A stretch of DNA of 64,000 nucleotides from an uncultured Candidatus Saccharibacteria bacterium (GCA_964646415.1 CAZYEL010000003.1:11639-75638); one strand, 5' to 3'. Counted from the first letter of the stretch, positions 1 through 33,549 are shown. The notes: generated by a model not told the origin, from the letters alone. Made by a program: numbers and translations.

Positions 1-645
1 GATGCCGAATACTGCTTCTGGGTAACCTCTTCTTCCCACATGTTCGGCTGCGCGAATATCCGCAAAAAAGAATACTGTATTTTGAACAGGCAGTATTCAA
101 AGGAGGAGTATGGAAAGTTGAGAATAAAAATAATAGAGGGCATGAACAAGAATCCATATGTAGATGCGGCGGGCATTGCATATAAATACGGCGAGTTCTT
201 CCCCATGGAATTGAACCTGCACGCCTACAACGAAACGCAGGCGATGGACTTTTTCCCCATCACCGAGGCGGAAGCGAAGAAAAAGGGCTATCTCTGGAGA
301 GAATTACCGTCTCCCAACGCGCAGCCCACGCTCTCCGCCGCCCAAGTCCCGGACAGCATCCACGACGTAAAAGACGACATACTCAAAGAAATTATCGAGT
401 GCGGGTCCTGCAAAAAACCGTTCCGCATAGTAAGGCCGGAGCTCGACCTCCTGCGGCGCTTCGCCTTGCCGGTCCCCGCGCAATGCTTCAGTTGCAGGCA
501 CATGGCGCGTCTCGCAAGAATAACCCCGCCCCGCCTTTGGGACCGCGCATGCGCGAAGTGCAATGCGCCGATTAAAACCTCATACTCCCCCGAGCGTCCG
601 GAGATGGTGTATTGTGAAAATTGCTACCGCCAGGAAACTGCATGA
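1..645 (+). CDS. Cys-rich multi-zinc-ribbon paralog, C-terminal part (5' end lies outside the window)
   Basis: The frame is open from nt 1 (DAEYCFWVTSSSHMFGCANIRKKEYCILNRQYSKEEY...). It carries the FGC..YCILN.QYSKEEY module and the C-terminal ...VYCENCYRQETA, homologous to ORFs 721-2529, 3166-4914, 4961-6772 and 35045-36853. Confidence 0.7.
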   Translation, partial: DAEYCFWVTSSSHMFGCANIRKKEYCILNRQYSKEEYGKLRIKIIEGMNKNPYVDAAGIAYKYGEFFPMELNLHAYNETQAMDFFPITEAEAKKKGYLWRELPSPNAQPTLSAAQVPDSIHDVKDDILKEIIECGSCKKPFRIVRPELDLLRRFALPVPAQCFSCRHMARLARITPPRLWDRACAKCNAPIKTSYSPERPEMVYCENCYRQETA

Positions 646-720
646 GAGCAATTTTCACCCTGAGCTTGTCGAAGGGCGATAAATGTTATTTTGCACAAGT
701 CAACTAATAACTTATAACCA

Positions 721-2529
721 ATGACGGAGACCCGGAATTGCAAAAACTGTTCCACACAATTCACCATCGAGCCCGACGATTTTTCGTTTTACGAGAAAAT
801 AAAAGTCCCGCCGCCCACATGGTGCCCGGAGTGCAGATTCCGGCGGAGAATCATCTGGCGAAATGAGCGGAAGCTTTTCCGGGGGAAAAGCGCCTTAACC
901 GGCCAAAACCTGTTCACCCTTTTCCCTCCCGAAGCGGGCTACATTCTTTACAAGAATGATGAATGGAGAGGCGGATACGACCCGCTTGCATATGGGCAGG
1001 AAGTGGATTTCTCGCGTCCTTTTCTCACGCAACTTTTCGAACTCGACAAGAAAGTCCCGAAACCCGCGGGCAGCGCCGCGAGAATGGTAAACAGCGAATA
1101 CTCGGATAACGCAAGCGACCTCAAAAACTGCTATCTCCTCTTCAATTCGAATTTCACCGAAGACAGCGCATACGGGAACGGCGTTGACCGGTGCAGGCAA
1201 TGCTTCGACAACTCGCATATTCAGGAATGCGAGCGGTGCTACCACTCGTTCTGGCTCACCAAGTGCTATGAAACCCACTTTTCTTCCCGCTGCGAGGACT
1301 GCACGAATATGTGGCTCTCGAAGGACTGCCGGGGCTGCAGCAATTGCTTCGGGTGCGTCAATTTGCGCGCGCAGAAGTACTGCATCTTCAATGAGCAATA
1401 TTCGAAAGAAGAATACCAGGCGAAACTCAAGGAATTGAATCTCTCGTCATGGAAAAATCTTTCCGAAGCGGGCGGGAAGGCAAAAGAGTTCTGGCTCCGG
1501 TTCCCGAATAAATTCATGCAGGGAGTGCAAAACATAAACGTGAGCGGCGAGTTCATCACACACTCCAAAAATGTTTTGGACAGCTACCTTATCCGCTCAA
1601 GCGAAAATCTCCGCTACACGCAGTACTCCCAGGTGCCGTCTTCGAAAGATTGCTACGATTCCTCGCTTATTGGCTGCAACGCGGAGTTGCTATACGAATC
1701 CTCCATATGCGGCTGGGGCGCATCAAACATCAAATTCTCCTGGGAATGCTGGGATAGCGCGGCGAACATGGAATACTGCATTTACTGCAACACCTCTTCC
1801 GACCTCTTCGGCTGCGCGGGCGTGCAGAAAAAGCAGTACTGCATTCTGAACAAACAGTATTCGAAAGAGGACTACTTCTCCATTCGTGAGAAAATAATCC
1901 GGCACATGAACGAAATGCCGTACTTGTCGCATGTCGCTAATCGCAAATCGCCAATTGAGTACAAATACGGGGAATTCTTTCCTCCTGAATTTTCTCCCTT
2001 CGCGTACACCCACACGATTTCACCCGACCACTTCCCTCTTTCGAAAGATGAGGCGCAGGCACTTGGATTCCGCTGGGCGGACGCGAACCCCACCGAGTAC
2101 CACACCACAAAGGACGCAAAAGACATTCCCGAAAAAATTGAGGACGTGCTCCCGGAAATAATCAAAGAAATCCTGAAATGCGAGAAGTGTGGCCGGGCGT
2201 ACCGCCTTATCGAACCGGAACTCCAATTCTTGAAACAGCTGGGAATCCCCGCTCCGCGGTGGTGCGTAGACTGCCGCCATAACGACCGTGTGAGCCAAAG
2301 GAACCGCGCGGTGTTCTACGACAGGAAGTGCCAGTGCTTGCCCACCGAAGCTTCAGCGAAGGAGGGAGTAGGCGTGAAGAGTAAGAATGAAAATAAGTAT
2401 GAGTATAAAAATACTACAACGCATTTCCACGGCGACGCGCCTTGCCCGAATGAGTTTAAAACCAGCTACTCCCCGGAACGGCAGGACATCGTGTACTGCG
2501 AGCAATGCTATCAGGCAGAAGTTGCATAG
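721..2529 (+). CDS. Cys-rich multi-zinc-ribbon protein, paralog family member (602 aa)
   Basis: N-terminal CKNC..FTIEPDDFSFYEKIKVPPPTWCPECRFRRR..RNER module. Dense CxxC pairs in the middle. Duplicated FGC.xLRxxxYCIxNxQYSKEEY module. The C-terminal half repeats the N-terminal ribbon (CEKCGRAYRLIEPELQF...PAPRWCVDCRH) and ends ...VYCEQCYQAEVA. Confidence 0.8.
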   Translation: MTETRNCKNCSTQFTIEPDDFSFYEKIKVPPPTWCPECRFRRRIIWRNERKLFRGKSALTGQNLFTLFPPEAGYILYKNDEWRGGYDPLAYGQEVDFSRPFLTQLFELDKKVPKPAGSAARMVNSEYSDNASDLKNCYLLFNSNFTEDSAYGNGVDRCRQCFDNSHIQECERCYHSFWLTKCYETHFSSRCEDCTNMWLSKDCRGCSNCFGCVNLRAQKYCIFNEQYSKEEYQAKLKELNLSSWKNLSEAGGKAKEFWLRFPNKFMQGVQNINVSGEFITHSKNVLDSYLIRSSENLRYTQYSQVPSSKDCYDSSLIGCNAELLYESSICGWGASNIKFSWECWDSAANMEYCIYCNTSSDLFGCAGVQKKQYCILNKQYSKEDYFSIREKIIRHMNEMPYLSHVANRKSPIEYKYGEFFPPEFSPFAYTHTISPDHFPLSKDEAQALGFRWADANPTEYHTTKDAKDIPEKIEDVLPEIIKEILKCEKCGRAYRLIEPELQFLKQLGIPAPRWCVDCRHNDRVSQRNRAVFYDRKCQCLPTEASAKEGVGVKSKNENKYEYKNTTTHFHGDAPCPNEFKTSYSPERQDIVYCEQCYQAEVA

Positions 2530-2532
2530 CGC

Positions 2533-2754
2533 ATGTGCCCTTGCTACCATTCAACCATGGCAACAGGCACAGCGTTAAAAAACCATAAGCTTTCTCCCGC
2601 CCTCCGCGCGTTTGTGCTTGAGGTGTTGCAAGGCGTCCTCCGCGACCCTGATTTCGGACGGGAGTTCACCGCAACCGCGCGGCGAAGACTTCGTGCCGCA
2701 TCCCAAACGAAAAAAACCGTTTCTTTCGCAGAAATCAAGCGGCGCTACGGGTAA
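2533..2754 (+). CDS. putative type II antitoxin (partner of the downstream RelE/ParE toxin)
   Basis: Small ORF with a 3-nt gap to the toxin gene. The likely true start is MATGTALK at 2557. Confidence 0.45.
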   Translation: MCPCYHSTMATGTALKNHKLSPALRAFVLEVLQGVLRDPDFGREFTATARRRLRAASQTKKTVSFAEIKRRYG

Positions 2755-2757
2755 GCC

Positions 2758-3024
2758 ATGGGAAAGTGGGCAATAGAGTTTTCCGTCGCTGCCACGCGGG
2801 ACATCTTGCGCCTTGACCGCCCGCTCCGCCACCACGTGATTGCAAAACTTGACTGGCTCGCGGCTCACTTTGATGAAATATCTCCGGTTCCTCTCACGGG
2901 AGAATTCAGCGGATTCTATAAATTGCGCATCGGCGATCTCCGCATCGCATATAAGATTGAGTGGAACATGCACCGGCTCATCGTACATTATATTGACTGG
3001 CGCGAACATATTTATAAAAAATAG
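2758..3024 (+). CDS. RelE/ParE-family type II toxin
   Basis: 88 aa. ...FYKLRIGDLRIAYKIEWNMHRLIVHYIDWREHIYKK is the typical ParE/RelE C-terminal signature. Confidence 0.7.
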   Translation: MGKWAIEFSVAATRDILRLDRPLRHHVIAKLDWLAAHFDEISPVPLTGEFSGFYKLRIGDLRIAYKIEWNMHRLIVHYIDWREHIYKK

Positions 3025-3041
3025 CGCGTACTATGAACTCC

Positions 3042-3095
3042 GAAACAAGAATCTGTCCCGTAAAATCACGAGCGTATGCGAGTAAATTTTACGTG
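3042..3095 (+). pseudogene. N-terminal remnant of a Cys-rich paralog (MNSETR...)
   Basis: atgaactccgaaacaagaa matches the start of the 4961 paralog (atgaactccgaaaccagaa, MNSETR) but runs into a stop after 17 codons. Confidence 0.3.
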
Positions 3096-3165
3096 GATCC
3101 CGTGATTCTTCGCTTGTGCGAAGAATTCTACGGGACAAAAACGCTCGTGATCACGGGATAAACCA

Positions 3166-4914
3166 ATGAACAAAGAACAGCGTCAATGTAAAAATTGTAA
3201 TTCTCCGTTTATAATCGAGCCCGACGATTTTTCGTTCTATGAAAAGATAGGCGTACCCGCCCCGATGTTCTGCCCAGATTGCCGGTTTCAGCGGCGGCTT
3301 TTGTGGCGGAATGAGCGGACGTTCTACCGGCGCGCGTGCGACCTCTGCAAGCGAAACATGATAGCGGTGTACCCCGCCGAAACACCCTTTCCTGTTTACT
3401 GCCAAAAGTGCTGGTGGTCGGATAAATGGAATCCGCTCTCTTATGGGCAAGACGTAGATTTTTCGAGGCCATTTTTCGATCAAGTAAAAGAGTTGTGGAG
3501 CAAAGTCCCCGCGCTCTCCATGCAAAACGACGACGGCATCGCAAGCACAAATTCCGAGTACGCCTACGATTGGGCCTTCAGCAAAAATACTTATATGAGC
3601 GTGTGCGGCTGGTTCACAGAAAACTGCCTCTATTCCTACTACGCCTGCTATGACAAAGATATTATGGACTGCTACTACGTAAGCAATTCCGAACTTGTAT
3701 ATAAAGTGACTTCTGCCGATAAGTGCTATGCCTCCAAATACTGCACACAAGTTTACGACTCCACTGACTGCACGCTTTCGCACGATCTCCGCGGATGCTC
3801 GCACTGTACGATGTGCGTAGGTCTCCGGAATAAGCAATGCTGCATTTTAAACCAGCAATATTCGAAAGAAAAATACGCGGCGAAACTCAAAGAGCTCAAT
3901 CTCGGAGATCGCGAATCGCTCGCCGCACACACGAAAGAATTCCAAGAATTTTCGCTCCGCACACCTAGAAAATTCGCCGACATGTTGAAATCAGTCCTCT
4001 GCACAGGAGACAACCTACTCGCATCCAAAAATTCCAAAAACTGTTTCTATGCAATGAAACTAGAGAACTGCCGTTACATAGCAAACGTGGACGAGGCAAA
4101 AGATTCATACGACTGCAATAACACCGGACGCCCCGAACTTTGCTATGAATCCGTAACCCCGGATATGTCCAAGGGAAACAAATTCGGGGTTTTCTGCTGG
4201 AAATGCACGGAGGCGGAATATTCGAACAACTGCCACTCATGCGTAAGCGTAATGGGATCTTCGGGGCTAAAACACACCTCCTACGCAATTTTGAATAAAC
4301 AGTATGACAAAGAATCCTTCGGCAAGCTCCGGACGCGCATCATCGAACAAATGAAGCGCGCCGGCGAGTGGGGAGAATTTTTTCCGCATACGCTCTCGCC
4401 GCACGCATATAACGAAACCGCCGCGCTTGAATGGTTCCCGCTCGAAAAAGAAGCCGCGCTGAAGCAAGGATACAGATGGAAAGATGAAGAGAAAAAGGAA
4501 TATTCGCCTACGAAAACTGCGGCAGACCTACCTAAAACCATCGCGGAAACCGATGATTCGATATTAAACGACATCATTGAATGCGCGCATAAAGGAACAT
4601 GCAACCACAAATGCACTACTGCGTTTCGGGTTGTGGCGGCCGAACTCCAGCTCTACCGCAAGCTCGATATTCCGATTCCCATGCTCTGCCCGAACTGCAG
4701 GCACTACGCACGGCTCGCGATTCGAAATCCTGCGAAACTATGGAAGCGCGCATGCCAGTGCGCCGGAGCAAGCTCCGAAAACGGAATCTACAAAAACACT
4801 GTCAATCATAGTCATGGCAATGGTCATTGTGAAGTTTCTTTTGAGACCTCGTTCGCACCCGAAAGACCAGAAATCGTATATTGTGAAAGTTGTTATAACA
4901 GCGAGATTGCCTAA
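3166..4914 (+). CDS. Cys-rich multi-zinc-ribbon protein, paralog family member (582 aa)
   Basis: CKNCNSPFIIEPDDFSFYEKIGVPAPMFCPDCRFQRRLLWRNER N-terminus, YAILNKQYDKE module, and C-terminus ...IVYCESCYNSEIA. Confidence 0.8.
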   Translation: MNKEQRQCKNCNSPFIIEPDDFSFYEKIGVPAPMFCPDCRFQRRLLWRNERTFYRRACDLCKRNMIAVYPAETPFPVYCQKCWWSDKWNPLSYGQDVDFSRPFFDQVKELWSKVPALSMQNDDGIASTNSEYAYDWAFSKNTYMSVCGWFTENCLYSYYACYDKDIMDCYYVSNSELVYKVTSADKCYASKYCTQVYDSTDCTLSHDLRGCSHCTMCVGLRNKQCCILNQQYSKEKYAAKLKELNLGDRESLAAHTKEFQEFSLRTPRKFADMLKSVLCTGDNLLASKNSKNCFYAMKLENCRYIANVDEAKDSYDCNNTGRPELCYESVTPDMSKGNKFGVFCWKCTEAEYSNNCHSCVSVMGSSGLKHTSYAILNKQYDKESFGKLRTRIIEQMKRAGEWGEFFPHTLSPHAYNETAALEWFPLEKEAALKQGYRWKDEEKKEYSPTKTAADLPKTIAETDDSILNDIIECAHKGTCNHKCTTAFRVVAAELQLYRKLDIPIPMLCPNCRHYARLAIRNPAKLWKRACQCAGASSENGIYKNTVNHSHGNGHCEVSFETSFAPERPEIVYCESCYNSEIA

Positions 4915-4960
4915 TTCCACTATTCGCTCATTCGCGCGAATGAGCGAATAAGAAACCACA

Positions 4961-6772
4961 ATGAACTCCGAAACCAGAACCACTTCGACAAGCTCAGTGC
5001 AAGCTTGCCAAAACTGTAAACAACCCTTCACAATTGAACCGGAAGATTTTACGTTCTATGAAAAGATAAAAGTTCCGCCACCCACGTGGTGCTGGCGGTG
5101 CCGCGCCATACGGCGAATGTCGTTCCGGAACATGACACACCTCTATCCGCGCATATGTGCCGCGACGGGGAAAAAGATCTACACGCTCATGCCGCCAGAG
5201 GCACCTATGCCGGTGTATAACTTGGAATACTGGATGAGTGACGCATGGGACCCTCTATCCTACGGACACGACTATGATTTCTCAAGACCGTTTTTCGAGC
5301 AGTTCCAAGAACTATATCATCAAGTACCCTACGGAATGATTACTTCAGTAGGGTCAGTAAATAGCGACTACAGTTCTACTATCTGGTCTAAAAATTGCTA
5401 TTTGTGCTTTGATGGGGGTTTCGGCGAAGACAGCGCTCATAATGTTACTCTCCAGCGGAGCAAACAATGTTTCGATACCATCAACTGCAAAGTCTGCGAG
5501 CTATGCTACTTCTCCATCAATATAAGCAATTCGTACAAAGTGTTCTTTTCCCGGAACTGCAGCTCATGCAGCGAAGTATGGTTTAGTCAGGACTGCATAG
5601 GTTGCACAAATTGTTTTGGCTGTACGGGATTACGCAACAAAAGTTATTTCATATTCAACGAACCTCACACCAAAGAGACCTACAAAAGAAAACTGGAGGA
5701 ACTAGGAATAAATTCATGGTCAGGAATTGAGATTTTAAAGCGGCGAGTTATGGAAGTTTGGCGAAAGTATCCGGTGAAATATATGCACAGCGTACAAGCG
5801 AAAGGGTGTACCGGTGACTACCTCTTTCATGCCAGCGAACTGCGCAACTGTTTCTTTGCTGACGGCGCACAAAACTGCGCACACTCTCAAAGCATCATTT
5901 ATAGTCCGATAAAAGATTGCATGGACATCACTTCTTCGGGTGTCACTATAGAATTGTGCTATGAAACGTGCTGCTCGGGGGCAGACCTTTCAAAGGTTTT
6001 CTTTTGTATGGAAGTTAATTCCGTCACCAACTCGCAGTATTCAATGGCGTGCAGCAACAGCAATAATTTGTTCGGATGTGTCGGGGTTCGAAAGAAAAAC
6101 TACTGCGTCTTGAACAAGCAATATTCGAAAGAAGAATACAACGCACTTGTTTCCAAAATCATCGAGCATATGGACAAAATGCCATACGTGGATGCGAAGG
6201 GGCGCGTGTATAAATATGGCGAATTTTTCCCGCCAGAGATGAGCCCCTTTGGATACAACATCACACAGGGACAGGAATATTTCCCAATGACGCAACAAGA
6301 AGCGGAAGCGCAGGGACTTAAATGGCGAGAACCGGAGAAAAAATCATATACCACAACAAAGACATCAAAAGATTTGCCGGACACCATCGGCGAAGTGGGA
6401 GATGAAATAACAAGCGAAGTAATTCAATGTGCGCACGATGAGAAAGGGAATCACCCGTTTGATTGCGCACCAAGCTGTTCCACCGCGTTCCGTATCATTC
6501 CTCAGGAAATCCAATTTTACCGACAAATGAAATTGCCGATCCCCCGACTTTGCTTCCACTGCCGCCACTTTGAGCGGGTCGCATGGCGAAATAAACCAGC
6601 ACTGTATTCCCGGAAGTGCGCATGCGCGGGAACAAAATCAGGAGAATACCAAAACGGAGTTCTGCACTTCCACGGCGACAAACCCTGCCCGAATGAGTTC
6701 GAAACCTCGTTCGCATCGGATAGAGCAGAAATAGTATATTGCGAACAATGTTACAACTCAGAAATCGCGTAG
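4961..6772 (+). CDS. Cys-rich multi-zinc-ribbon protein, paralog family member (603 aa)
   Basis: CQNCKQPFTIEPEDFTFYEKIKVPPPTWCWRCR N-terminus, FGCVGVRKKNYCVLNKQYSKEEY module, and C-terminus ...IVYCEQCYNSEIA. Confidence 0.8.
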   Translation: MNSETRTTSTSSVQACQNCKQPFTIEPEDFTFYEKIKVPPPTWCWRCRAIRRMSFRNMTHLYPRICAATGKKIYTLMPPEAPMPVYNLEYWMSDAWDPLSYGHDYDFSRPFFEQFQELYHQVPYGMITSVGSVNSDYSSTIWSKNCYLCFDGGFGEDSAHNVTLQRSKQCFDTINCKVCELCYFSINISNSYKVFFSRNCSSCSEVWFSQDCIGCTNCFGCTGLRNKSYFIFNEPHTKETYKRKLEELGINSWSGIEILKRRVMEVWRKYPVKYMHSVQAKGCTGDYLFHASELRNCFFADGAQNCAHSQSIIYSPIKDCMDITSSGVTIELCYETCCSGADLSKVFFCMEVNSVTNSQYSMACSNSNNLFGCVGVRKKNYCVLNKQYSKEEYNALVSKIIEHMDKMPYVDAKGRVYKYGEFFPPEMSPFGYNITQGQEYFPMTQQEAEAQGLKWREPEKKSYTTTKTSKDLPDTIGEVGDEITSEVIQCAHDEKGNHPFDCAPSCSTAFRIIPQEIQFYRQMKLPIPRLCFHCRHFERVAWRNKPALYSRKCACAGTKSGEYQNGVLHFHGDKPCPNEFETSFASDRAEIVYCEQCYNSEIA

Positions 6773-6840
6773 GAGATTGCCTGCCCCGCGTAGAGCGGCG
6801 TGGCCGCCACGCGGCTTTACGCCGTGATGAGCGACCGTGT

Positions 6841-6915
6841 CCCGTGCGAAGTTTTACGGGAAGCGAATTTTACGGGGTGTACTGCGAGGCTTGTTATAAC
6901 GCGGAGATAGCGTAA
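6841..6915 (+). pseudogene. C-terminal remnant of a further Cys-rich paralog
   Basis: Translates to PVRSFTGSEFYGVYCEACYNAEIA*, matching the conserved family C-terminus (..FETSFAPER.EIVYCEQCYNSEIA) without an upstream ORF. Confidence 0.45.
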
Positions 6916-7229
6916 CAATTTCTCTCCTCTCCACTATTTCATCTGTTTTATTTCTAGCTCGCGTTTCGCAGTTTCAAACTTTGCCACAAAATGATCAAAG
7001 AATCATTCATAAAAGAAATGTAACTTCTCCCCTGCGCGTTCCCCAACAACACGCCGTCATATCTCTTGCGGGGCTTCTCGCAGCGCGGCGGCGCGAGAGT
7101 GAGCGCTGCGGCAGCCCGCCGCAGACAGTGTCCCCGCAAGAGATATGCACAAGTGAATCTTGACACCCCTCCCCTCCGGCGTACGATGACAATACAAGTT
7201 GCGTAGTTGCGAAAGTATGCAACTCATTA

Positions 7230-7480
7230 AAAATTAGCAGTGAGTCCAGAGAAACCCGCCGTCGCATAAAGCTATGGCGTGGTAACAGGGGAAGCGGGTG
7301 TAAATCCCGCACAGTGCCGCTACGGTGAAGCCCGCCTACGTTCATAAAGAACTTCGGCGAGGCGCAGTCCGAATACCAACCTCTGGAAAGTTCGTGTTTG
7401 CTTCTCGGTGCAAGAGGCAACTGATACTCGTCCCATCAGGTTTTCTCTTGCCGCGTGCAAGAGTTTTTTGTTTTTCGTGT
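7230..7480 (+). promoter_or_regulatory. cobalamin (B12) riboswitch with terminator expression platform
   Basis: GGTAACAGGGGAAGCGGGTGTAAATCCCGCACAGTGCCGCTACGGTGAAG matches the RF00174 core (GGGAAG..GGTG.AAA.CC...CCGC.AC.GTGA). A B12-box-like GCAGTCCGAATACC follows. A hairpin ctcttgccgcgtgcaagag plus a T-run lies at 7446-7476, upstream of the CDS at 7534. Confidence 0.65.
7446..7476 (+). terminator. intrinsic terminator (riboswitch OFF-state hairpin)
   Basis: ctcttgc cgcg tgcaagag followed by ttttttgttttt. Confidence 0.5.
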
Positions 7481-7533
7481 GCGAAAAACACCCTGAGCAA
7501 GCGAAGCGTGTCGAAGGGTATACCTCTACTTTT

Positions 7534-9393
7534 ATGTCTAAAAAATATATCGAAGTGCTCGTGGGTTTCGCGGTCGTAAGCGGTTTGTTTTTTAATGCGG
7601 GAGTCTCGCGGGGCGATACGAACGCCTCAATCGCCTACTTGAAGTCGAAACCGCTCACGGCGTGGACGATTATGGCGCTCGTCGCGGCGGGAGAGTCGCC
7701 CTCGCTTGAGACGCTCAAAACCGTCACGAGCGATAAGGCAATCGACTTTGAGGCGCCCATCTTGGCACTCACCGCCGCAGGCAAAGACCCCCGGAACTTC
7801 GGGAGCGTTGACCTCGTCGCAAAACTCAAAAGTTTCTCCGACGGTGCGCAGCTCGGCGACGCGACCATTTTGAATGACGACGTCTTCGGCATCCTGGCGC
7901 TTCTCTCCGCGGGCGAATCGCGCGAGAGCACGGCTGTTTCGAGTACGCTCCGCTTCGTAAAAGCCCGCCAGAACGGCGACGGCGGATGGGGCTACGCCGT
8001 GGGCGGCACGAGCGACACAAACACGACCGCCGCGGCAGTGATGGCACTCCGCGCGGCGGAAGTGCCCGCGAACGACGCCTCCCTCACGAAGGCAATCGAC
8101 TACCTCAAAGCCGCGCAAAATGGCGACGGCGGATTCCCCTACGACCCCAAGAGCGCGTGGGGCACAGACTCCGACGCCTCCTCGGACGCGTGGAGCATCA
8201 TGGCAATCAAAAGCGCGGGGCAGGACCCCGCAGCGTGGCAAAAAGACGGGAAGTCGCCTGCGAATCACCTCCAAACCCTCCGAGCCGAAAGCGGCGCATT
8301 CACGTACCAGCCGGGCGCGGGCGAAGACGCGTTTACCCCCACGACGACCTCCTACGCGGTGATTGCGCTCGCCAACAAGTTTTTCCCGCTCCGCGTCATC
8401 TCCCCCGCCGCACCGGTACCCGTCCATTATTCCTACCGCATTGAGGGCGCGACTCAAGAACTCTGCGCGGGAGAAGCAGACGGAGTGAATGCAATCGAAT
8501 CGGTTAAGTCAGCCGCGGCCGCATGCGGAATCACCTATCACATACAAGAATCTTCTCTCGGCTCTTACGTGGATGAAATAGCAACAGAAAAAGCCGCCGG
8601 GTCCAAGGGATGGCTTTATTTTATAAATAACGAGCTCGCAAGCGTTGGAGCGGACGCATACCGATTAAAATCCGCGGATGAAATACTTTGGTATTTTGGA
8701 GAATATGGCGCTCTGCCCACGCGCATTACACTCGCGACAACCACAATAGCCGGAGGATCAAACGCCGAAGGGACCGTTGAGTCATACAAAAACGGCGCGT
8801 GGAGCGCGCTTCAGGAAGCTGTGGTTAAATCAGGGCATTCAAGCACAACGACCGGAAGCGACGGAAAATTCTCTCTCTCCTTAAATCCCGGGATTCGCAA
8901 AATTTATGCCGAAAAAACCGGATTTGTAAGAGGCGCGGAGATTAAAGTAACTGTCGGGTCGCTCTCAAGCACAACGCTCGATCTTGAAGTGGACATTCCC
9001 GCATCCACCTCCACGAACTCCGGATCCGGCGGGGGCGGAAATGGAGGCGGGGGCGGAAATCCGGCATCGGGAGAAGTTTCATTCGTAGTCGAAACCGGCA
9101 CATCGGCAAAATCATTGGACTTCGGGAAATTGGATAAGGGAAAACAGCAAAAGAAAAAAATCACGTTGCAAAACAAAGGGCAAGGCACGCTTTCAATAGA
9201 AAGCGCGGTAACCGGAGACGATCTGTTCAAAAGTTATCTTCTCTTAGACGGGAAAACATGGCGGCTTTTCCAAAACTCTGTTACTGCCGGAGCATCTATC
9301 ACGCCCGAAGTGAGAATAGACATTCCTCAAAATTATTCCGGATCCGGCGTTAAAAAGGGCGCGCTTACGTTTTGGGCAACTCAAATTCAATAA
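7534..9393 (+). CDS. surface-exposed putative cobalamin-binding protein: prenyltransferase/terpenoid-cyclase-like alpha/alpha-toroid repeats plus DUF4430 (transcobalamin-like) domain plus Ig-like C-terminal domains
   Basis: N-terminal signal/anchor MSKKYIEVLVGFAVVSGLFF. Repeated QNGDGGWGY / QNGDGGFPY motifs typical of the prenyltransferase-squalene cyclase repeat. DUF4430-like region ...GITYHIQESSLGSYVDEIA...GWLYFINNELASVGADAYRLKSADEILWYFG. Gly-rich linker and beta-rich C-terminus. Sits directly downstream of the B12 riboswitch. Confidence 0.7.
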   Translation: MSKKYIEVLVGFAVVSGLFFNAGVSRGDTNASIAYLKSKPLTAWTIMALVAAGESPSLETLKTVTSDKAIDFEAPILALTAAGKDPRNFGSVDLVAKLKSFSDGAQLGDATILNDDVFGILALLSAGESRESTAVSSTLRFVKARQNGDGGWGYAVGGTSDTNTTAAAVMALRAAEVPANDASLTKAIDYLKAAQNGDGGFPYDPKSAWGTDSDASSDAWSIMAIKSAGQDPAAWQKDGKSPANHLQTLRAESGAFTYQPGAGEDAFTPTTTSYAVIALANKFFPLRVISPAAPVPVHYSYRIEGATQELCAGEADGVNAIESVKSAAAACGITYHIQESSLGSYVDEIATEKAAGSKGWLYFINNELASVGADAYRLKSADEILWYFGEYGALPTRITLATTTIAGGSNAEGTVESYKNGAWSALQEAVVKSGHSSTTTGSDGKFSLSLNPGIRKIYAEKTGFVRGAEIKVTVGSLSSTTLDLEVDIPASTSTNSGSGGGGNGGGGGNPASGEVSFVVETGTSAKSLDFGKLDKGKQQKKKITLQNKGQGTLSIESAVTGDDLFKSYLLLDGKTWRLFQNSVTAGASITPEVRIDIPQNYSGSGVKKGALTFWATQIQ

Positions 9394-14572: not shown

Positions 14573-15124
14573 CTAATACTCCACTCCCTTCACCCCCGTC
14601 ACGCCTTCCGTATAGGGATGTTTCACCTCGCGCATCTCGGTGACCAAATCCGCCTCCTCGATGAGTTCCGGTGCGGCATTCCGCCCCGTGAGAATCACGT
14701 GCTCCAGCTTTTTATGCGCCCGATGGAGCACTTTCTCCAGCTCCTTTTCCGCGATAAGCCCCAATGCCACCGCGTTATTCACCTCATCGAGGATAACCAC
14801 TTCCCACTTCCCCGACTGAATTTCCTTGTCCGCGAACGCAAGCGCCTCGCGCGCGGCTTTCTCATGCTCCTCCCACGGCAGCTTATCCCCGAAGATTCCC
14901 ACGAACCCTTTCCCCATCTTCACAATTTTAAAATTCGGTGCGAGGAACTTTTGCGAGTCATCCTCCCCGCTCCGCCACGGTCCCTTGATAAACTGCACCA
15001 TAAGCACCTTCTTTCCGTCGCCCACGAGCCGCAACGCCTGCCCCAAGGCGGCGGTCGTTTTCCCTTTTCCGTTACCGGTAAAAACTAGGAGCATGAACCG
15101 CTTGCCGTGCCGCACTGAATGCAC
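14573..15124 (-). CDS. cobO: cob(I)alamin/corrinoid adenosyltransferase (CobO/BtuR type)
   Basis: LLVFTGNGKGKTTAALG P-loop and ..EVVILDEVN.. pattern typical of CobA/CobO. An alternative start MLLVF at 15094 avoids overlap with nrdJ. Confidence 0.7.
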   Translation of the reverse strand: MHSVRHGKRFMLLVFTGNGKGKTTAALGQALRLVGDGKKVLMVQFIKGPWRSGEDDSQKFLAPNFKIVKMGKGFVGIFGDKLPWEEHEKAAREALAFADKEIQSGKWEVVILDEVNNAVALGLIAEKELEKVLHRAHKKLEHVILTGRNAAPELIEEADLVTEMREVKHPYTEGVTGVKGVEY

Positions 15125-17826
15125 GTTTTACACGACCCTGTTTGAATAAGCATCCCTCCGCACGCGCGGCACACACTATCCGCAAAAACCGTCGTCCGCT
15201 CCGCCCGCACTGGCTCTTCGACAACCGCAACGGTTTTCGCCGCGGGCATCGCGGGAGCTTTTTCATCCTGGTCGAGCTCCTTATGCGGCACCTTGATGCC
15301 CATCCCCTCAAGCTCATCCGCAGAGAGAAAACGGATGGCGAGATAGCGGAAAATGTAGTCCGTAATGGAAGTCGCCACCTGCACCTCCGGATTCTTGGTA
15401 AATCCGGCGGGCTCGTACCTGCCATACGAAAACTTCTGGGCGAGCGTCGCGACCGGCACGCCGTACTGGAGCGCGGTCGAAACCACGATGGCGAAAGCAT
15501 CCAACAGCCCCGCCAAGGTCGAACCCTGCTTTGACATCCTTATGAAAATCTCCGCGAGCCCGCCGTCCTCGAACATGCTGTACGTAAGATACCCCTCGTG
15601 CCCCGCAATCGAGAATTTGTGCGTTTCCGAAGGCCTTGTTGCGGGGAGATGGCGCCGCGCCGGCTTCTGTTCTTTCTTCTTGGTATCTCTCCCCTGGCCC
15701 GCACCGGTGAAGAGCGGCTGCGCGGCTTTCGAACCGTCGCGGTAGACGGCGAAGGCCTTGAGTCCCATTTTCCACCCCATCATGAGCGCCTGCTCCACTT
15801 CCTCCACGGTGGTCTCGTGCGTCATGTTAAATGTCTTCGATATCGCGCCCGAAAGGAAAGGCTGCACCGCCGCCACCATTTTCACATGCCCCTTCCACGA
15901 AATGGAGCGGGTGCCCTTCGCGGGTTTCACCGCGCAGTCAAATATGGGAAGATGTTCCTCCCGCAGGCCCGGCGCGCCCTCCGCGGTCCCCTGCGCCTCG
16001 ATGTACTGCACGATTGCCGCGCGCTCCGCCTCGCCGTATCCCACCGCCTGAAGCGCGTCGGTGACTACATTATTCACGAACTTCATCACCCCTCCCCCCA
16101 CAAGCCGCTTCATCTTCACAAGCGCGAACTCGGGCTCCACTCCGGTCGTGACGCAATCCATCATAAGCGCAATCGTACCCGTGGGCGCCAAAAGAGAAAC
16201 CTGCGCATTCCGCACGCCCCACCGGCGGGCGTCCGTTACCGCCCCATCCCATGCTTCACGCGCGCCCCGGAGAATATCGCTGTCGAACGCAAGCACACCA
16301 TCCACTCCTTGGAGCGCATCCCGGTGCATCTGGAGCACTTTGAGGAACGGCTCACGGTTTTCCTGGAACCGGGCGAAAGGATGCATGTCACGCGCAAGCG
16401 ACGCGGAGAAGCGGTACGCCTCCCCCGTCATGAGCGCGGTGATTGCGGCGGCGGTGTGCCTCGCTTCGTCCGAGTCGTACGGAATCCCCAAGGACATGAG
16501 CAAGGCGCCCAAATTCGCGTAGCCCAGCCCCAGCTGCCGGAAGTCGTGCGCGTTCTTCGCGATACGCGGCGTGGGGTACGACGAACCGTCCACCAAAATC
16601 TCCTGCGCGAGAAGCATGATGTCCACCGTGCGGCGGAACCCCTCGACGTCGAACCGCTTCTCGGGCGTGAGATAGTGCAGCAGGTTGATGGATGAAAGGT
16701 TGCACGCGGAATTGTCCACATGCATATACTCGCTGCAAGGATTTGATGCGTTGATGCGCCCCGAAGCGGGGCACGTGTGCCACCGGTTGATGGTGGTGTC
16801 GAACTGCACCCCGGGGTCGCCGCAGTTCCATGCATTCTCCGCAATCGCGCGGAAAACATCCCGCGCTTTGTGGGTATCGGCGACGGCGCCGTCCGTAATC
16901 CGCCGCGTCCGCCATACCTCGTCCTGCTCCACCGCCTGCATAAAGGCGTCCGTCACCCGCACGCTGTTGTTCGCATTCTGGTACTGGATGGAATTCCACG
17001 CGGGGTCGTTCAAGTCGTACATGTTGTACCCCGCCTCAATAAGCGCCTTCACTTTCTTTTCTTCCTCGCTTTTCACTCCGATAAACCGCACCACGTCGGG
17101 GTGGTCCACATTCAAAATCACCATTTTCGCCGCCCGCCGCGTAGAACCGCCCGAGGCGATCATGCCAGCAACCGCATCCGCGCCGCGCATGAAGGACACA
17201 GGTCCTGACGAATGCCCGCCGCGCGAAAGCGTTTCGCTCGTCGAGCGGAGCGAGGAGAGATTTACTCCCGCCCCCGAACCGCGTTTGAAAATAAGCCCTT
17301 CCGTCGAAATCCACTCAAGAATGGATTCCATCGAGTCTTCCACTGAGAGAATGAAACATGCCGAGCACTGGGGCCTCGCATCAAGCCCCACATTGAACCA
17401 CACCGGCGAGTTGAACGCCGCGCGCTGGCGCACAAGCACAAAGGCGAGTTCCTGCGCAAACATATCCGCCTCGCGCACGTCCGCGAAGTACTGCGCGCGA
17501 AGCCCCCATTCACGGATGGTCTTCACAACCCGTCCCACCATTTGCTTCACCGAGTGCTCCCGCTCCGTGGAACCCACGCGCCCGCGGAAATATTTCGAGC
17601 CGGCGATTTCCGCCGCGTTGTCCGACCAAAATTCCGGGAACTCCAGTTCGCGCTCTTCTTTGGCGCCGTTCGTCCCGCGCACCGTCACCTTCCGGGTCGT
17701 CCATGCAACTTTATCGAAAGGATGCGCACCTTCGTGCGTAAAGTATCTTTCGATAAAGGGCGCTTTCGCGCTCTTGTTCTGCTTATGCGCACCGACGGGT
17801 ACCGACACGTGTTCCATGAAAATCAA
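15085..17826 (-). CDS. nrdJ: class II (adenosylcobalamin-dependent) ribonucleotide reductase
   Basis: 913 aa. RNR class II catalytic-core similarity over the full length (..NPCSEYMHVDNSACNL.., ..GGGTG..). C-terminal zinc ribbon CRACGG...CKTCIQCG. Confidence 0.85.
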   Translation of the reverse strand: MIFMEHVSVPVGAHKQNKSAKAPFIERYFTHEGAHPFDKVAWTTRKVTVRGTNGAKEERELEFPEFWSDNAAEIAGSKYFRGRVGSTEREHSVKQMVGRVVKTIREWGLRAQYFADVREADMFAQELAFVLVRQRAAFNSPVWFNVGLDARPQCSACFILSVEDSMESILEWISTEGLIFKRGSGAGVNLSSLRSTSETLSRGGHSSGPVSFMRGADAVAGMIASGGSTRRAAKMVILNVDHPDVVRFIGVKSEEEKKVKALIEAGYNMYDLNDPAWNSIQYQNANNSVRVTDAFMQAVEQDEVWRTRRITDGAVADTHKARDVFRAIAENAWNCGDPGVQFDTTINRWHTCPASGRINASNPCSEYMHVDNSACNLSSINLLHYLTPEKRFDVEGFRRTVDIMLLAQEILVDGSSYPTPRIAKNAHDFRQLGLGYANLGALLMSLGIPYDSDEARHTAAAITALMTGEAYRFSASLARDMHPFARFQENREPFLKVLQMHRDALQGVDGVLAFDSDILRGAREAWDGAVTDARRWGVRNAQVSLLAPTGTIALMMDCVTTGVEPEFALVKMKRLVGGGVMKFVNNVVTDALQAVGYGEAERAAIVQYIEAQGTAEGAPGLREEHLPIFDCAVKPAKGTRSISWKGHVKMVAAVQPFLSGAISKTFNMTHETTVEEVEQALMMGWKMGLKAFAVYRDGSKAAQPLFTGAGQGRDTKKKEQKPARRHLPATRPSETHKFSIAGHEGYLTYSMFEDGGLAEIFIRMSKQGSTLAGLLDAFAIVVSTALQYGVPVATLAQKFSYGRYEPAGFTKNPEVQVATSITDYIFRYLAIRFLSADELEGMGIKVPHKELDQDEKAPAMPAAKTVAVVEEPVRAERTTVFADSVCRACGGMLIQTGSCKTCIQCGTASGSCS

Positions 17827-23336: not shown

Positions 23337-23337
23337 A

Positions 23338-23805
23338 TTACCGTACATCCCACCTGAACGAACGTTCGGGGACTCCACCGACGTTTTTGATTTTTAACTC
23401 GACATATTGCGGCGTTGGCTGAATCGGATTAAACATAAGTGTCCCTTCGCGATGGTGCCCGCCGGGGCCGGGACCCTCCCACGCCGTCGGCTGATATGTA
23501 TTTCCCTTATCATCCACGAGAACTGCAACTTGCACCACAGCATCATCCAAACTTCCGGAGTGAGTGTCAAAAACAACATCAAACCGCCATATGTTCGCGC
23601 TTGTACCGAATTCTATCGGGGTAACTTTGATTGTTACCGGCGACTGACTGTCGGTTTTCGTTTCCCAACTACGCGGCGCCGTGCTCGCGGGTTGCGAGGC
23701 CTGCAATTCACCGCTCGTCTGAAGCGGTTCACGGTTTTTCGAAACTCCGCTCAAAACGAGCACCACAGCAACCAGTCCGGCGATTATGTACGGTGCATAT
23801 TTCAT
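23338..23805 (-). CDS. secreted/anchored hypothetical protein
   Basis: N-terminal TM helix [18 protein letters not shown], followed by a beta-rich domain. Confidence 0.4.
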
Positions 23806-32574: not shown

Positions 32575-32886
32575 ATGACGAGGGTAAAAAGGCCGCAACT
32601 CAAGAGCGGGTGGTGCTTCGCGATAGTCAATAACCGACTCGCTGAAATTTCGTTTGAGAAACGATACGGAATTTGGGGGCACTGCTACGTGAAACGAGAG
32701 GAATATAAAACGAGGCAAGAACAAAAATGGATAAGAGAGGATACGGAAAAGTGCCGGTTCACGTATAGGAAGGGGTACTACTTTGATAGAATTCGCGGCA
32801 CGAAACAGAAAGTGCCGCCGAGACGTAAAATATCCCCCCCGCTCGATAAAAAGAAAACGATACTTCTCAAAGACATGATTCAGTAG
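32575..32886 (+). CDS. hypothetical protein (cargo of the repeat-bracketed cassette)
   Basis: 103 aa ORF. No recognisable motif. Confidence 0.25.
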   Translation: MTRVKRPQLKSGWCFAIVNNRLAEISFEKRYGIWGHCYVKREEYKTRQEQKWIREDTEKCRFTYRKGYYFDRIRGTKQKVPPRRKISPPLDKKKTILLKDMIQ

Positions 32887-33149
32887 GTATGCGAACCGCG
32901 CCGTTTAACCTGCGCCACGAGGACTTTTCGGCTCTGCTGATACACTCGATAAAATATCCTGTATGCACCAATTCTCCGGCGCCAACGGTTTTCTTCCCCT
33001 TTCAACTTCTCTATATCGCCTGCGTAGGGATTGTCCGCAAGCGAGCGAACCGCCTCAAAGACCCTTCGCTTATCATCCGGTGACCAGCGCTTGGTTGTCC
33101 GATACACGTCCGGCTCAATTTCTAACTCCCAGCTTTCGCCTGAATGCAT
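32880..33149 (-). CDS. RelE/ParE-family type II toxin
   Basis: ...NRWRRRIGAYRIFYRVYQQSRKVLVAQVKRRGSHTY. The start MHSGESWELEI is chosen to limit overlap with the antitoxin. Confidence 0.6.
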   Translation of the reverse strand: MHSGESWELEIEPDVYRTTKRWSPDDKRRVFEAVRSLADNPYAGDIEKLKGEENRWRRRIGAYRIFYRVYQQSRKVLVAQVKRRGSHTY

Positions 33150-33348
33150 CAAGGGAAAGAGTTTTTCCTGCCGCGAAGTTTTTTTCCGCTTTTTCAAACG
33201 TGCGCCGCTGCGCCGCGGTCATGGAAACCGTTTTGTATTTGCGCGGCGGCGCAAAACGGGCGCGTTCTTGCAACGCCTCGTATTCCTCCTTAGGCACAAG
33301 GAGAAGGTCTTTCCCCGCAAGATGCTTTGGAATTGTGATAGTTGCCAT
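33115..33348 (-). CDS. antitoxin (AbrB/MazE-like or Phd-like) partner of the RelE/ParE toxin
   Basis: MATITIPKHLAGKDLLLVPKEEYEAL. Overlaps the toxin start. Confidence 0.5.
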   Translation of the reverse strand: MATITIPKHLAGKDLLLVPKEEYEALQERARFAPPRKYKTVSMTAAQRRTFEKAEKNFAAGKTLSLDAFRRKLGVRN

Positions 33349-33446
33349 ACGCGCATCCTACCACGAGAGCACCCGAGGTATCAATCGCCCCCTAAGTTCT
33401 AATGGCTAAATTCTAATGGCTCTAGCGTGCCTCTGCCTCTAACGGG

Positions 33447-33499
33447 ATGTGCGCAATCTGGGGACTCCCGCCCCTCAAACCCTTATGCCGCAAGGGTTT
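33447..33499. repeat. ~50-bp direct repeat copy B
   Basis: gtgcgcaatctggggactcccgcccctcaaacccttatgccgcaagggttt. Confidence 0.6.
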
Positions 33500-33549
33500 C
33501 CGCTGGCCCTATTGCGGTATTTCCGTATATGTCGCATAATATCGCGGGC

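Follow-up and report, generated by a model that had tools for sequence, protein, structure and literature searches.

What is encoded by the row of long, cysteine-rich paralogs at the start of this DNA, and what might such proteins do in a cell with so small a genome? The DNA considered here (the window) is a stretch of 64,000 nucleotides from an uncultured Candidatus Saccharibacteria bacterium. CPR/Patescibacteria genomes measure about 1 Mb, yet at least 10.5 kb (six genes) is devoted here to one uncharacterised family. The proteins form an undescribed family, soluble and about 550–620 aa long, whose genes are functional and ancient; our search of the literature on the family, its Pfam fingers and CPR zinc-finger families found no description of it. 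[quoted passage not shown]

Gene copies, remnants and an inserted toxin gene

Three full genes of the family lie in tandem on the plus strand: paralog A (721–2529, 602 aa), paralog B (3166–4914, 582 aa) and paralog C (4961–6772, 603 aa). They are preceded on the same strand by the last 214 codons and stop of a 568-aa gene (1–645) that is cut by the window start and whose whole version was found at L004:4209–5915. A further copy, paralog D (35045–36853, minus strand, 602 aa), follows immediately downstream of ftsE-ftsX, which shares its strand, with FtsX Pfam matches for 36872–37780. These ORF translations bear out the multi-paralog array described in the initial annotation, and all of the sequence modules quoted there were found in a MAFFT alignment, although the copies are slightly less similar than the 40–50% identity it gave (36–43% by BLASTP, 40–45% by MAFFT). 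A contig from the same genome carries five tandem copies, and the genome therefore holds at least six. Because independent contigs from four sequencing runs show an identical gene order, the array cannot be put down to misassembly. A promoter and terminator scan of 1–7600 gave no more sites than shuffled sequence, and no Shine-Dalgarno motifs were seen upstream of the family genes.

The two gene remnants that had been noted among the full copies differ in credibility. The stretch 6829–6915 (plus strand), located by tblastn with matches inside the window from E 0.015 (paralog C) to 0.096 (paralog B), translates as ERPCPVRSFTGSEFYGVYCEACYNAEIA followed by a stop codon, ends in a tail finger (VYCEACYNAEIA) and is identical to paralogs B and D at 10 of its terminal 12 residues; from its sequence it is credibly the 3′ tail fragment of a further family gene. 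The possible 5′ remnant at 3034–3159 (plus strand), identified by sequence comparison, is plausible but weak: in the frame 3034–3105 (MNSETRICPV...) only the first 8 codons, MNSETRIC at 3034–3057, match family members (compare MSSETRVC in the related locus L090), which is too short a stretch for a tblastn score, and nested inverted repeats and hairpins follow at 3054–3159. The toxin of the toxin-antitoxin pair reported within the array is sound, an 88-aa ParE/RelE-type protein (2758–3024, plus strand; Pfam ParE_toxin 26.2 bits, cut-off 23; TIGR02385, E 1.3e-4), while the 73-aa ORF upstream of it (2533–2754, plus strand) matches no family and is a candidate antitoxin. The pair is missing at this position in L090, where the spacer from ortholog to ortholog is only 76 nt; it is an independent insertion and lies outside the family. 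Ongoing recombination, as originally suggested, thus reduces to modest turnover, consisting of the absence of paralog C and of the toxin-antitoxin pair from L090 and of one or two short remnants.

Distribution and selection

At least 7,988 homologs were found in a sequence search limited to 8,000 candidates, and clustering at 50% identity gave 5,058 clusters at E≤1e-3 and 2,121 at E≤1e-30. In species-representative genomes the best 80 of at least 581 loci were all from Patescibacteria, as was every relative with a name or location, and as far as seen the family is restricted to this group (CPR). Neither the phage genome collection nor the IMG/VR viral contigs contained relatives, and a mobile or viral origin of the family was dropped for this reason. 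What had been taken for a lineage-specific expansion proves to be general, since co-oriented tandem rows of 2–7 old paralogs occur at 50 of 81 loci throughout Patescibacteria. Paralog A is the best-conserved type across the radiation, with orthologs in other candidate phyla at 50–80% identity, and the nearest relatives of paralogs C and D are 60% (L070) and 59% (L041, a Liptonbacteria contig) identical, respectively. In some genomes the arrays lie inside the grpE-dnaK-dnaJ and ftsW-murG gene strings, the latter in Jorgensen- and Liptonbacteria (L001, L020, L028, L030), as an ftsEX pair is the neighbour of paralog D in the window.

The duplications are old, as first supposed: among 257 within-locus pairs the median identity was 39% and the maximum 70%, so that none exceeded 80%, and single-linkage clustering of 201 members resolved no clean subfamilies. 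The idea of a diversifying family did not survive the dN/dS comparison that had been suggested as its check. L090, the closest relative, has 1:1 orthologs of the window genes at 79–84% identity with NG86 dN/dS of about 0.09–0.10, namely those of paralog A (84%, dN/dS about 0.10), paralog B (R602, 83%) and the partial paralog at the window start (R567, 79%); paralog C has no ortholog at the corresponding position. The low dN/dS together with the 1:1 orthology therefore shows purifying, not diversifying, selection on the family genes. In related genomes as many as seven old copies persist under purifying selection, often within chaperone and cell-division operons.

Protein architecture and its relation to known folds

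The family proteins are modular and internally repetitive, which profile-profile alignment confirmed. In paralog A, to which the coordinates below refer (plus strand), conservation and likeness to Pfam PF13451 delimit an N-terminal treble-clef finger (ribA; aa 1–56, 721–888) with ligands C7, C10, C35 and C38, followed by an invariant basic helix, CRxxRRxxxRN; the ribA cysteines are 98–99% conserved in 201 sequences. The second finger (ribB; aa 57–85, 889–975) has lost its four cysteines in paralog A and is degenerate in paralog C also, whereas in paralogs B and D it is intact (CDLCKR...VYCQKCW), as are all four of their finger sites; over the family, the ribB columns 57, 60, 78 and 81 hold Cys in 38–57% of members. 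Repeat half 1 (aa 118–235, 1072–1425), recognised by its Cys/Ser rhythm, by the structural model and by hhalign, consists of rungs of about 12 residues with a Cys/Ser ladder, then DCxGCxNCFGC and the cap LRxxKYCIFNxQYSKEEY. Repeat half 2 (aa 262–388, 1504–1884), placed by hhalign, conservation and the model, ends in the cap FGCAGVQKKQYCILNKQYSKEDY. The conserved middle region that follows (aa 389–480, 1885–2160; pLDDT above 90) is a helix and then ...YKYGEFFPxExSPFxY...FPL..., for which no family or fold match was obtained. Conservation and hhalign define a C-terminal treble-clef finger (ribA′; aa 481–536, 2161–2328) with ligands C487, C490, C515 and C518 and a basic helix CRHxxRxxxRN, and conservation and PF23477 likeness a tail finger (ribB′; aa 537–602, 2329–2529) whose ligands C537, C575, C593 and C596 are about 100% conserved and which in about 60% of members carries an optional CxC...HxH insert. 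The partial paralog at 1–645 retains the second-half cap (FGCANIRKKEYCILNRQYSKEEY), the middle region and the C-terminal treble-clef finger, and ends in a minimal CxxC...CxxC tail finger. Because profile-profile probabilities reach 99.5% between the N- and C-terminal ribbons and 99.9% between the two halves, these are true internal duplications; for ribB against the tail finger hhalign gave a probability of 87.5%.

The description of the proteins as multi-zinc-ribbons has to be amended. A long run of CxxC pairs does exist, but across 201 members most of its positions exchange Cys with Ser, Val or Leu, and these central cysteines are therefore not conserved metal ligands. For the most part the run is a Cys/Ser ladder with a period of 3, part of a repeat fold, and Cys/Ser autocorrelation in half 1 is 0.67, 0.53, 0.59 and 0.68 at lags 3, 6, 9 and 12 (weaker in half 2). 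Conserved four-Cys sets point to three or four firm zinc sites per protein, and both zinc binding and the details of the solenoid fold are predicted features. In the AlphaFold2 model of paralog A (pLDDT 83, pTM 0.84) the repeat core has a strand rhythm at pLDDT 63–77; in that of paralog D (pLDDT 78, pTM 0.81) the core is at 46–66. The modelled N-terminal finger of paralog A has treble-clef geometry, with C7 and C10 on strands 3–6 and 13–16 and a helix (36–44) beginning at C35-P-x-C38, and the C-terminal finger looks alike (helix 516–524). That the proteins lack signal peptides and transmembrane segments was upheld for the family, none of 215 members having a hydrophobic 19-mer above 1.6 on the Kyte-Doolittle scale, and the cytoplasmic location first assumed is supported.

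In agreement with the initial annotation, profile and fold searches place the whole protein in no characterised family: scans of the whole proteins with Pfam, NCBIfam, PADLOC and PHROGs returned nothing at or above threshold, and no match from Pfam, NCBIfam, PADLOC, the PDB or viral folds accounts for the entire chain. A PDB sequence search with paralog A gave only chance nanobody matches, the ribA profile found only spurious C2H2 knuckles in the PDB, and PADLOC 2.0 returned no family at E≤1 for four paralogs. Elsewhere the PADLOC matches were limited to inserted neighbours (DUF4238-Pers) and ATPases (weak mad8/HerA).

The individual fingers do have relatives. ribA shares the pattern CxxC-x3-F-x-I...FY-x-K...P-x-P-x2-CxxCR with PF13451 (zf_Tbcl), which gives matches at E≤10 for 19 of 30 segments (lowest E 1.2e-5), including the N-terminal finger of paralog A at 18.7 bits (E 0.0017; gathering threshold 24 bits); PF13451 went unreported in the whole-protein scan. 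Similarly, 13 of 15 isolated ribB and tail fingers match PF23477 (zf_Tbcl_2), which on whole proteins scores 16.1 bits (paralog D) and 21.3 bits (partial copy) against a gathering threshold of 27 bits. The family proteins stay below the gathering thresholds of both entries, which describe uncharacterised "probable treble clef" fingers of about 40 residues and not a 600-aa architecture, and the repeat core and middle region have no Pfam model. A ribB profile also aligns over 28 residues, CxxC-x17-(I/V)YCxxCY, with the second finger of the LIM domains of CRP1, CRP2 and MLP (E 9e-6 to 5e-4), and the Pfam LIM match is weak (profile positions 29–57 of 58). LIM domains are eukaryotic, and their fingers are protein-docking modules. 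The family has only the second-finger half of this two-finger domain of about 55 residues and lacks its CCHC first finger, and the match may reflect convergence of short Cys-rich motifs. For the core, narrow antifreeze beta-solenoids of insects and plants (TmAFP 1ezg, CfAFP 1m8n, ryegrass IRI 3ult) are among the closest known systems; coils of 12 residues with a small inward residue at each third position are common to the family and the Tenebrio-type helix, but the family does not show that helix's combination of TxT ice-binding ladder, secretion signal and one disulfide in each coil. Pairs of treble-clef and LIM-like fingers around a narrow Cys/Ser-ladder solenoid constitute a new fold combination of structural interest.

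Neighbouring ATPases and possible functions

At 34 of 82 loci we found a total of 61 genes for ATPases resembling type IV coupling proteins (T4CP; VirD4/TrwB), lying at most two genes from a family member at 30 of the 82; 59 of the 61 share the orientation of the family genes, and such an ATPase is the first flanking gene of at least 100 aa in 21 of 80 arrays. Their density near the arrays is about 54 per Mb as against roughly 2 per genome genome-wide, an enrichment that takes its background from a literature count obtained with different models and from taking a genome to measure about 1 Mb. That count comprises 5,713 T4CP homologs in 2,918 genomes, only 148 of them near virB4, for which "exaptation" was suggested (PMC12102498). 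The neighbouring ATPases match TrwB_AAD_bind, T4SS-DNA_transf and TraG-D_C, but differ from type IV coupling proteins in that most (40 of 56) lack the N-terminal membrane anchor. Fifteen of the 56 carry a ribB-type finger (PF23477, E 4e-13, 49.2 bits). A family HMM gave insignificant finger-level matches to the ATPases (E≥0.085), and it is Pfam and the alignment that point to a finger common to both. Among the recurrent neighbours we recognised neither a relaxase nor VirB4, and the family proteins appear to lack the features of known type IV secretion substrates. The link is one of context and not of membership. The linkage is frequent, not obligatory: 48 of 82 loci have no such ATPase within about 8 kb, the 64-kb window has none, and the two families could simply use shared permissive insertion sites.

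We tentatively propose, as the favoured reading though short of a probable one, that the family members are zinc-stabilised cytoplasmic scaffolds or adaptors that work with orphan VirD4/TrwB-like ATPases, and we infer a physical or functional coupling of the two. The rigid core would be a narrow solenoid in two homologous halves, in which a Cys/Ser ladder is buried and each of which is sealed by the cap FGCxGLRxKxYCILNxQYSKEEY together with a helix. At either terminus a pair of zinc fingers, a zf_Tbcl-like treble clef with invariant arginines (CRxxRRxxxRN) and a zf_Tbcl_2/LIM-like finger, would dock a partner, be it protein or nucleic acid. The scaffold would act with orphan, mostly soluble ATPases of the FtsK/HerA superfamily, some of which carry the same finger, and the long-diverged paralogs would provide distinct specificities or form a mixed complex.

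Among the alternatives, an unlikely but serious one is a stand-alone nucleic-acid binder, for example one that handles DNA or RNA in organisms living by nucleic-acid scavenging, in which the arginine-rich helices of the two treble-clef fingers grip the backbone, the solenoid is a spacer and the ATPase linkage may be incidental or due to a shared DNA substrate. Treble-clef fingers often bind nucleic acids, the residues R39, R42, R43, R47, N48, R519, R523 and R527 vary little or not at all, the N-terminal finger is homologous to the C-terminal one, and the ATPases beside the arrays match the TrwB DNA-binding domain family; against this, the proteins taken as a whole are almost neutral (pI 6.4–8.3, net charge −3 to +7), match no known DNA- or RNA-binding family and in ribB resemble a protein-protein module, and the six to seven old paralogs would be hard to account for. 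The position of arrays between ftsW and murG, the ftsX-ftsE neighbours of paralog D and the homologous modules at both ends of a repeat-fold core would fit a scaffold of cell division or the cytoskeleton, one polymerising head to tail through its terminal fingers at the division and cell-wall machinery, as bactofilins do; the family does not show the characteristics of bactofilins (DUF583) or polymer-forming solenoids, and we regard this as quite improbable.

The remaining explanations carry still less weight. Tandem multi-copy arrays, adjacent VirD4-like ATPases and the epibiotic life of CPR bacteria would suit a variable set of effectors, recognised by T4CPs and exported into the host cell by type IV secretion, and tandem VirB2 arrays are described from Patescibacteria (PMC12102498). 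This effector role, raised in the initial annotation, is hard to reconcile with strong purifying selection (dN/dS about 0.09–0.10) and 1:1 orthology, with termini that are the most conserved parts and not swapped as in polymorphic toxins, and with the lack of recent duplicates and of signal sequences; the one toxin in the array is the independent ParE insertion, structural zinc sites would hamper unfolding for export, and the ATPases are mostly unanchored and seldom near virB4. We consider it very unlikely. A metal or redox buffer tied to the nearby copper/thiol island, in which the cysteines would be a store for Zn or Cu or a thiol sink, likewise lost its support and now seems scarcely credible: each protein has 32–42 Cys, a CutA1 gene lies beside arrays at 6 loci and the DCxGCxNCFGC cluster (conserved 75–97%) could bind extra metal, but Cys makes up only 5.6–7.1% of these large (568–603 aa), fold-constrained proteins rich in conserved Tyr, Phe and Trp, as opposed to about 20–30% in small metallothioneins with few aromatics, and most central cysteines are freely replaced. 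Copper/thiol genes are not recurrent neighbours at 82 loci, and the array of L090 also adjoins a B12 island, as in the window, suggesting simple synteny. Equally remote is a beta-helix enzyme, for although left-handed beta-helix acyltransferases and gamma-carbonic anhydrases head the fold-search lists, the family does not show the set of features that marks such enzymes, namely a hexapeptide-repeat family match, triangular coils of 18 residues, a significant fold match and a catalytic His or metal site.

Returning to the scaffold and its ATPases, a bolder and more doubtful form of the proposal is that the two families together constitute an unrecognised, CPR-specific cytoplasmic machine, in which hexameric ATPases, acting in translocation or remodelling, would dock through the shared treble-clef/LIM-like fingers onto rigid zinc-finger solenoid adaptors. 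Such a machine, whose components have their genes within core operons (grpE-dnaK-dnaJ, ftsW-murG), would act on DNA or protein in reduced-genome symbionts and would account for the thousands of T4CP homologs found apart from any type IV secretion machinery. In either form the link gives each of the two families a partner that can be tested, the thousands of orphan Patescibacteria T4CP homologs unlinked to virB4 having been noted as unexplained (PMC12102498). Other recurrent neighbours of the arrays are mixed and share no common theme, and include GH130, a cytidylyltransferase-like protein, an APH-type kinase, SIMPL and a ribosome hibernation factor.

A radiation-wide family kept as long-diverged tandem paralogs

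The window encodes four full-length members of the family, A (721-2529, +, 602 aa), B (3166-4914, +, 582 aa), C (4961-6772, +, 603 aa) and D (35045-36853, -, 602 aa), and a fifth gene, truncated by the window start to its last 214 codons (1-645, +), a count from the initial annotation that the ORF listing confirms. Identity among these copies is 40-45% in MAFFT alignments and 36-43% by BLASTP. On contigs from four independent runs that carry an identical copy A, the order is guaA (-), a 575-aa paralog, a DUF4238 gene, a 568-aa paralog (the cut copy), A, a toxin-antitoxin pair, B and C; this order is no product of misassembly, and the genome therefore has a minimum of six copies, five in tandem and D. 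Runs containing the locus include SRR4343430 and SRR12113401/426/428. Copy D lies directly 3′ of ftsE-ftsX on the same strand.

Word-indexed searching, capped at 8,000 candidates, recovered at least 7,988 homologs, none with a Pfam domain and all named 'hypothetical' at source except for one JGI label, 'YbaR (Trm112 family)'. Named sources are Lipton-, Jorgensen-, Giovannoni-, Sung-, Nomura-, Curtiss- and Gracilibacteria and Paceibacterota, and copy A finds its best match (81-84% identity) in a Ca. Liptonbacteria genome, a result that assigns the window to this lineage, taxon labels of some assemblies being unreliable. An exhaustive profile search, with relatives grouped at 50% identity, gave 5,058 clusters at E<=1e-3 and 2,121 at the stricter E<=1e-30. 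Species-representative genomes hold at least 581 loci encoding a relative, the best 80 of which were inspected and were all Patescibacteria (80/80); searches of phage genomes and IMG/VR contigs found no relatives. The family is a real, ancient, radiation-wide multigene family, and the expansion, at first taken to be lineage-specific, extends with its tandem rows across Patescibacteria. One 731-aa protein from the representative search, P0251, bears a 140-residue GNAT-acetyltransferase-like N-terminal extension, and its ribA fingers have lost part of their Cys; as a single case, it could be a gene-call fusion.

Tandem organization was surveyed by calling ORFs in 82 non-redundant loci (from 87), selected via copy-A-type matches, and scoring them with the family HMM. 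All 216 family genes found (216/216) lie on the strand of the query match. Within about 18 kb, full-length copies number one in 31, two in 18, three in 13, four in nine, five in three, six in six and seven in one of the 81 loci with any such copy. Median identity within loci is 39% and the maximum 70% (257 pairs), and with no pair above 80% there is no recent duplication in any sampled genome, which upholds the view that these paralogs are old.

Synteny between the window and its closest relative (L090) extends from the array into the B12 island. The L090 array holds three copies, orthologous one to one with the cut copy (79% identity), A (84%) and B (83%); copy C and the toxin-antitoxin pair are both absent there. 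By the NG86 method, dN/dS against these orthologs is 0.110/1.14 for A and 0.139/1.57 for the cut copy, or about 0.09-0.10, dS being saturated for B. These 1:1 orthologs and low ratios therefore indicate purifying selection, and the description of the family as diversifying does not hold; the paralogs are retained as long-diverged tandem sets. Of the ongoing recombination also proposed, what can be seen is modest turnover: one copy gained or lost, toxin-antitoxin and defence insertions, and short remnants.

Finger pairs around a duplicated repeat core

Profile-profile alignments on a 201-sequence alignment resolve the proteins into a finger pair at each end, a treble-clef-type ribA and a LIM-like ribB, and a duplicated core (positions in copy A numbering). 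The N-terminal ribA (aa 1-56) is homologous to aa 481-536 with a probability of 99.5%, ribB (aa 57-85) to the tail (aa 573-599) with 87.5%, and core half aa 118-235 to aa 262-388 with 99.9%, each half closing with a FGCxGLRxKxYCILNxQYSKEEY cap. Three ligand sets are firm, with Cys conserved at 98-99% (C7/10/35/38), 88-99% (C487/490/515/518) and about 100% (C537/575/593/596). A further finger, at 57/60/78/81, is optional: 38-57% of members have Cys there, B and D keep it complete, and A and C have lost it. A CxC...HxH insert, found in about 60% of members, is likewise optional. Both ribA fingers are backed by helices with invariant arginines in the pattern CRxxRRxxxRN. In ribA, 19 of 30 segments match zf_Tbcl (PF13451; best E 1.2e-5, below the Pfam gathering threshold), and in ribB 13 of 15 fingers match zf_Tbcl_2 (PF23477), the family proteins again falling below the gathering threshold; among PDB entries, ribB matches the second finger of LIM proteins (E 9e-6).

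The central Cys are conserved at 18-75% and are replaced mainly by Ser, Val or Leu, the exceptions being the DCxGCxNCFGC motif (75-97%), C365 and C374. Occupancy by Cys or Ser in the first core half is strictly 3-periodic and peaks at 12. Antifreeze-type beta-helices with 12-residue turns have the same rhythm, which arises from their inward-facing small residues, and because of this likeness the long run of CxxC pairs is best read as mostly a buried Cys/Ser ladder. Of the initial multi-zinc-ribbon reading, what stands are the conserved 4-Cys finger sites, three or four per protein and putatively zinc-binding; for the central run it gives way to the ladder.

The AlphaFold2 model of copy A (64 sequences) reaches a mean pLDDT of 83 and a pTM of 0.84, with pLDDT above 90 in the fingers, the caps and the middle region and 63-77 in the first core half; for copy D the values are 78 and 0.81, with 46-66 in the first core half. 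Given this moderate model confidence, assigning the core to the narrow beta-solenoids is reasonable as a prediction of fold class but not secure. Foldseek gave no significant match in PDB or BFVD. The treble-clef fingers, LIM-like fingers and narrow solenoid are all known fold types, and the overall architecture is without a solved relative.

Orphan ATPases in the neighbourhood and possible roles

When all non-family ORFs of the 82 loci were clustered, the dominant neighbour was a VirD4/TrwB-like (T4CP-like) ATPase with matches to TrwB_AAD_bind, T4SS-DNA_transf, TraG-D_C and DUF87. Its 61 genes are spread over 34 of the 82 loci; in 30 loci one lies at most two genes away from the family, and 59 of the 61 share the orientation of the family genes. 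For 21 of 80 arrays, such an ATPase is the first gene of at least 100 aa on the flank. A 2025 survey counted 5,713 VirD4-type homologs across 2,918 Patescibacteria genomes, only 148 of them near virB4, and its authors raised exaptation (PMC12102498). Compared with about two per genome, 61 genes over 1.12 Mb amount to an enrichment of roughly 25-fold, a rough figure that combines different models with an assumed genome size. None of these ATPases lies within the 64-kb window.

A hydrophobic segment is absent from 40 of 56 ATPases, and 15 of 56, of median length 700 aa, possess a genuine PF23477 finger (E 4e-13), whose CxxC...TVPFKPEPGRPVYCKxC aligns to the family tail C...FETSYAPERPEIVYCExCY. 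In the 700-aa ATPases (L011:2854-4986, L027:5801-7987, L029:5810-7912) this finger is followed by a long low-complexity Lys/Pro/Glu-rich linker and a conserved C-terminal peptide, (I/V)PEDVL(R/L)K(I/V)LE, a possible docking motif; the L011 gene lies upstream of a copy A-type gene at L011:4990-6750. Typical gene orders are dnaK - ATPase(700) - [family x1-3] - ATPase(500) - dnaJ and grpE - [family x2-6] - dnaK, and in Jorgensen- and Liptonbacteria ftsW - [family x2-4] - murG; the family thus often sits inside housekeeping operons and beside orphan T4CP-like ATPases. Small CutA1 and ~140-aa cytidylyltransferase-like genes also recur, in a block ATPase - CutA1 - cytidylyltransferase - family gene (L009, L042, L056, L063, L083, L085; L033, L064, L076), and a similar cytidylyltransferase-like ORF, with no paralog adjacent, lies in the window at 43461-43859 (-).

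We tentatively propose that the proteins act as zinc-stabilised scaffolds or adaptors whose terminal fingers would dock partners and which would cooperate with the adjoining T4CP-like ATPases. The invariant Arg helices would also suit a stand-alone nucleic-acid binder, a reading we consider doubtful, and a division-associated polymer appears improbable. The cytoplasmic location first assigned is borne out, and secreted effectors, including the polymorphic or variable set once suggested, are quite unlikely given the conservation pattern and the solubility of the neighbouring ATPases. There is very little to be said for a metal or redox buffer linked to the nearby copper/thiol island, since Cys exchanges with Ser and makes up just 6-7% of residues, and genes like those of the island do not recur beside the family in the 82 loci. 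Equally remote is a beta-helix enzyme, for which neither a motif, a significant fold match nor a catalytic set was found.

The searchable literature yielded no description of the family or its Pfam fingers; Meheust et al. (2019) report mostly hypothetical Parcubacteria-enriched families and nothing further on point. No known system covers the fold combination, the sets of tandem paralogs or their linkage to the ATPases.

Insertions, remnants and adjoining genes

Genes seated between paralogs include ParE in the window, PemK-like genes in four loci, HicA in L089 and, one gene upstream of the window start, DUF4238-Pers (L004:3308-4204, on a contig of the same genome; PADLOC E 7e-13). Toxin-antitoxin or candidate defence insertions, PemK/MazF-like ones included, occupy such positions in different genomes (L004, window 2533-3024, L012, L032, L034, L061, L089), and the spacers appear to be permissive hotspots. 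The pair between A and B consists of a ParE/RelE-type toxin (2758-3024, +; Pfam 26.2 bits, cut-off 23) and a 73-aa ORF 5′ of it. Public gene calls (Logan contigs) annotate in its place a 144-aa minus-strand ORF (2575-3009, -), probably wrongly, because the plus-strand ORF matches ParE/RelE and the minus-strand ORF has no family match.

After C, a 3′ fragment of a further copy (6829-6915) reads ...GVYCEACYNAEIA up to its stop. A possible family-gene start before B, the eight codons MNSETRIC (3034-3057) followed by nested hairpins, is a weak candidate for a second remnant. About 630 nt from copy D lies an IS30-family transposase (33573-34412, -; NCBIfam, 144.8 bits over two matched stretches); adjoining it is a ParE-type toxin (32880-33197, -; Pfam E 1.4e-8), overlapped at its 5′ end by a small ORF (33115-33348), the cassette spanning 32880-34412. 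AACCA(ATG)-like contexts precede the starts at 721, 3166, 4961 and 38547 (-) (ATAACCAATG, ATAAACCAATG, AAACCACAATG and ATCCACCAATG), with no Shine-Dalgarno sequence visible in the 30 nt 5′ of each, and may represent a lineage-specific translation-initiation context.

Directly after the array come a cobalamin riboswitch (7232-7399, +; Rfam RF00174, 34.7 bits) and a secreted-looking ORF (7534-9393) with a squalene-cyclase-like toroid, DUF4430 and CarboxypepD_reg domains. Further on are a CobA/CobO/BtuR-type adenosyltransferase (14573-15094, -) and a class II ribonucleotide reductase (15085-17817, -), labelled from the syntenic L090 locus; together these elements look like an island for B12 capture and use in a metabolically minimal genome. 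The copper/thiol island, read by eye, consists of a P-type ATPase (20742-23348, -) whose N-terminus bears an MxCxxC heavy-metal motif, and of small membrane and thiol-type ORFs around it, to about 29200. Just 5′ of the riboswitch is a perfect 16-nt inverted repeat (7058-7073 / 7132-7147) with a 58-nt spacer.
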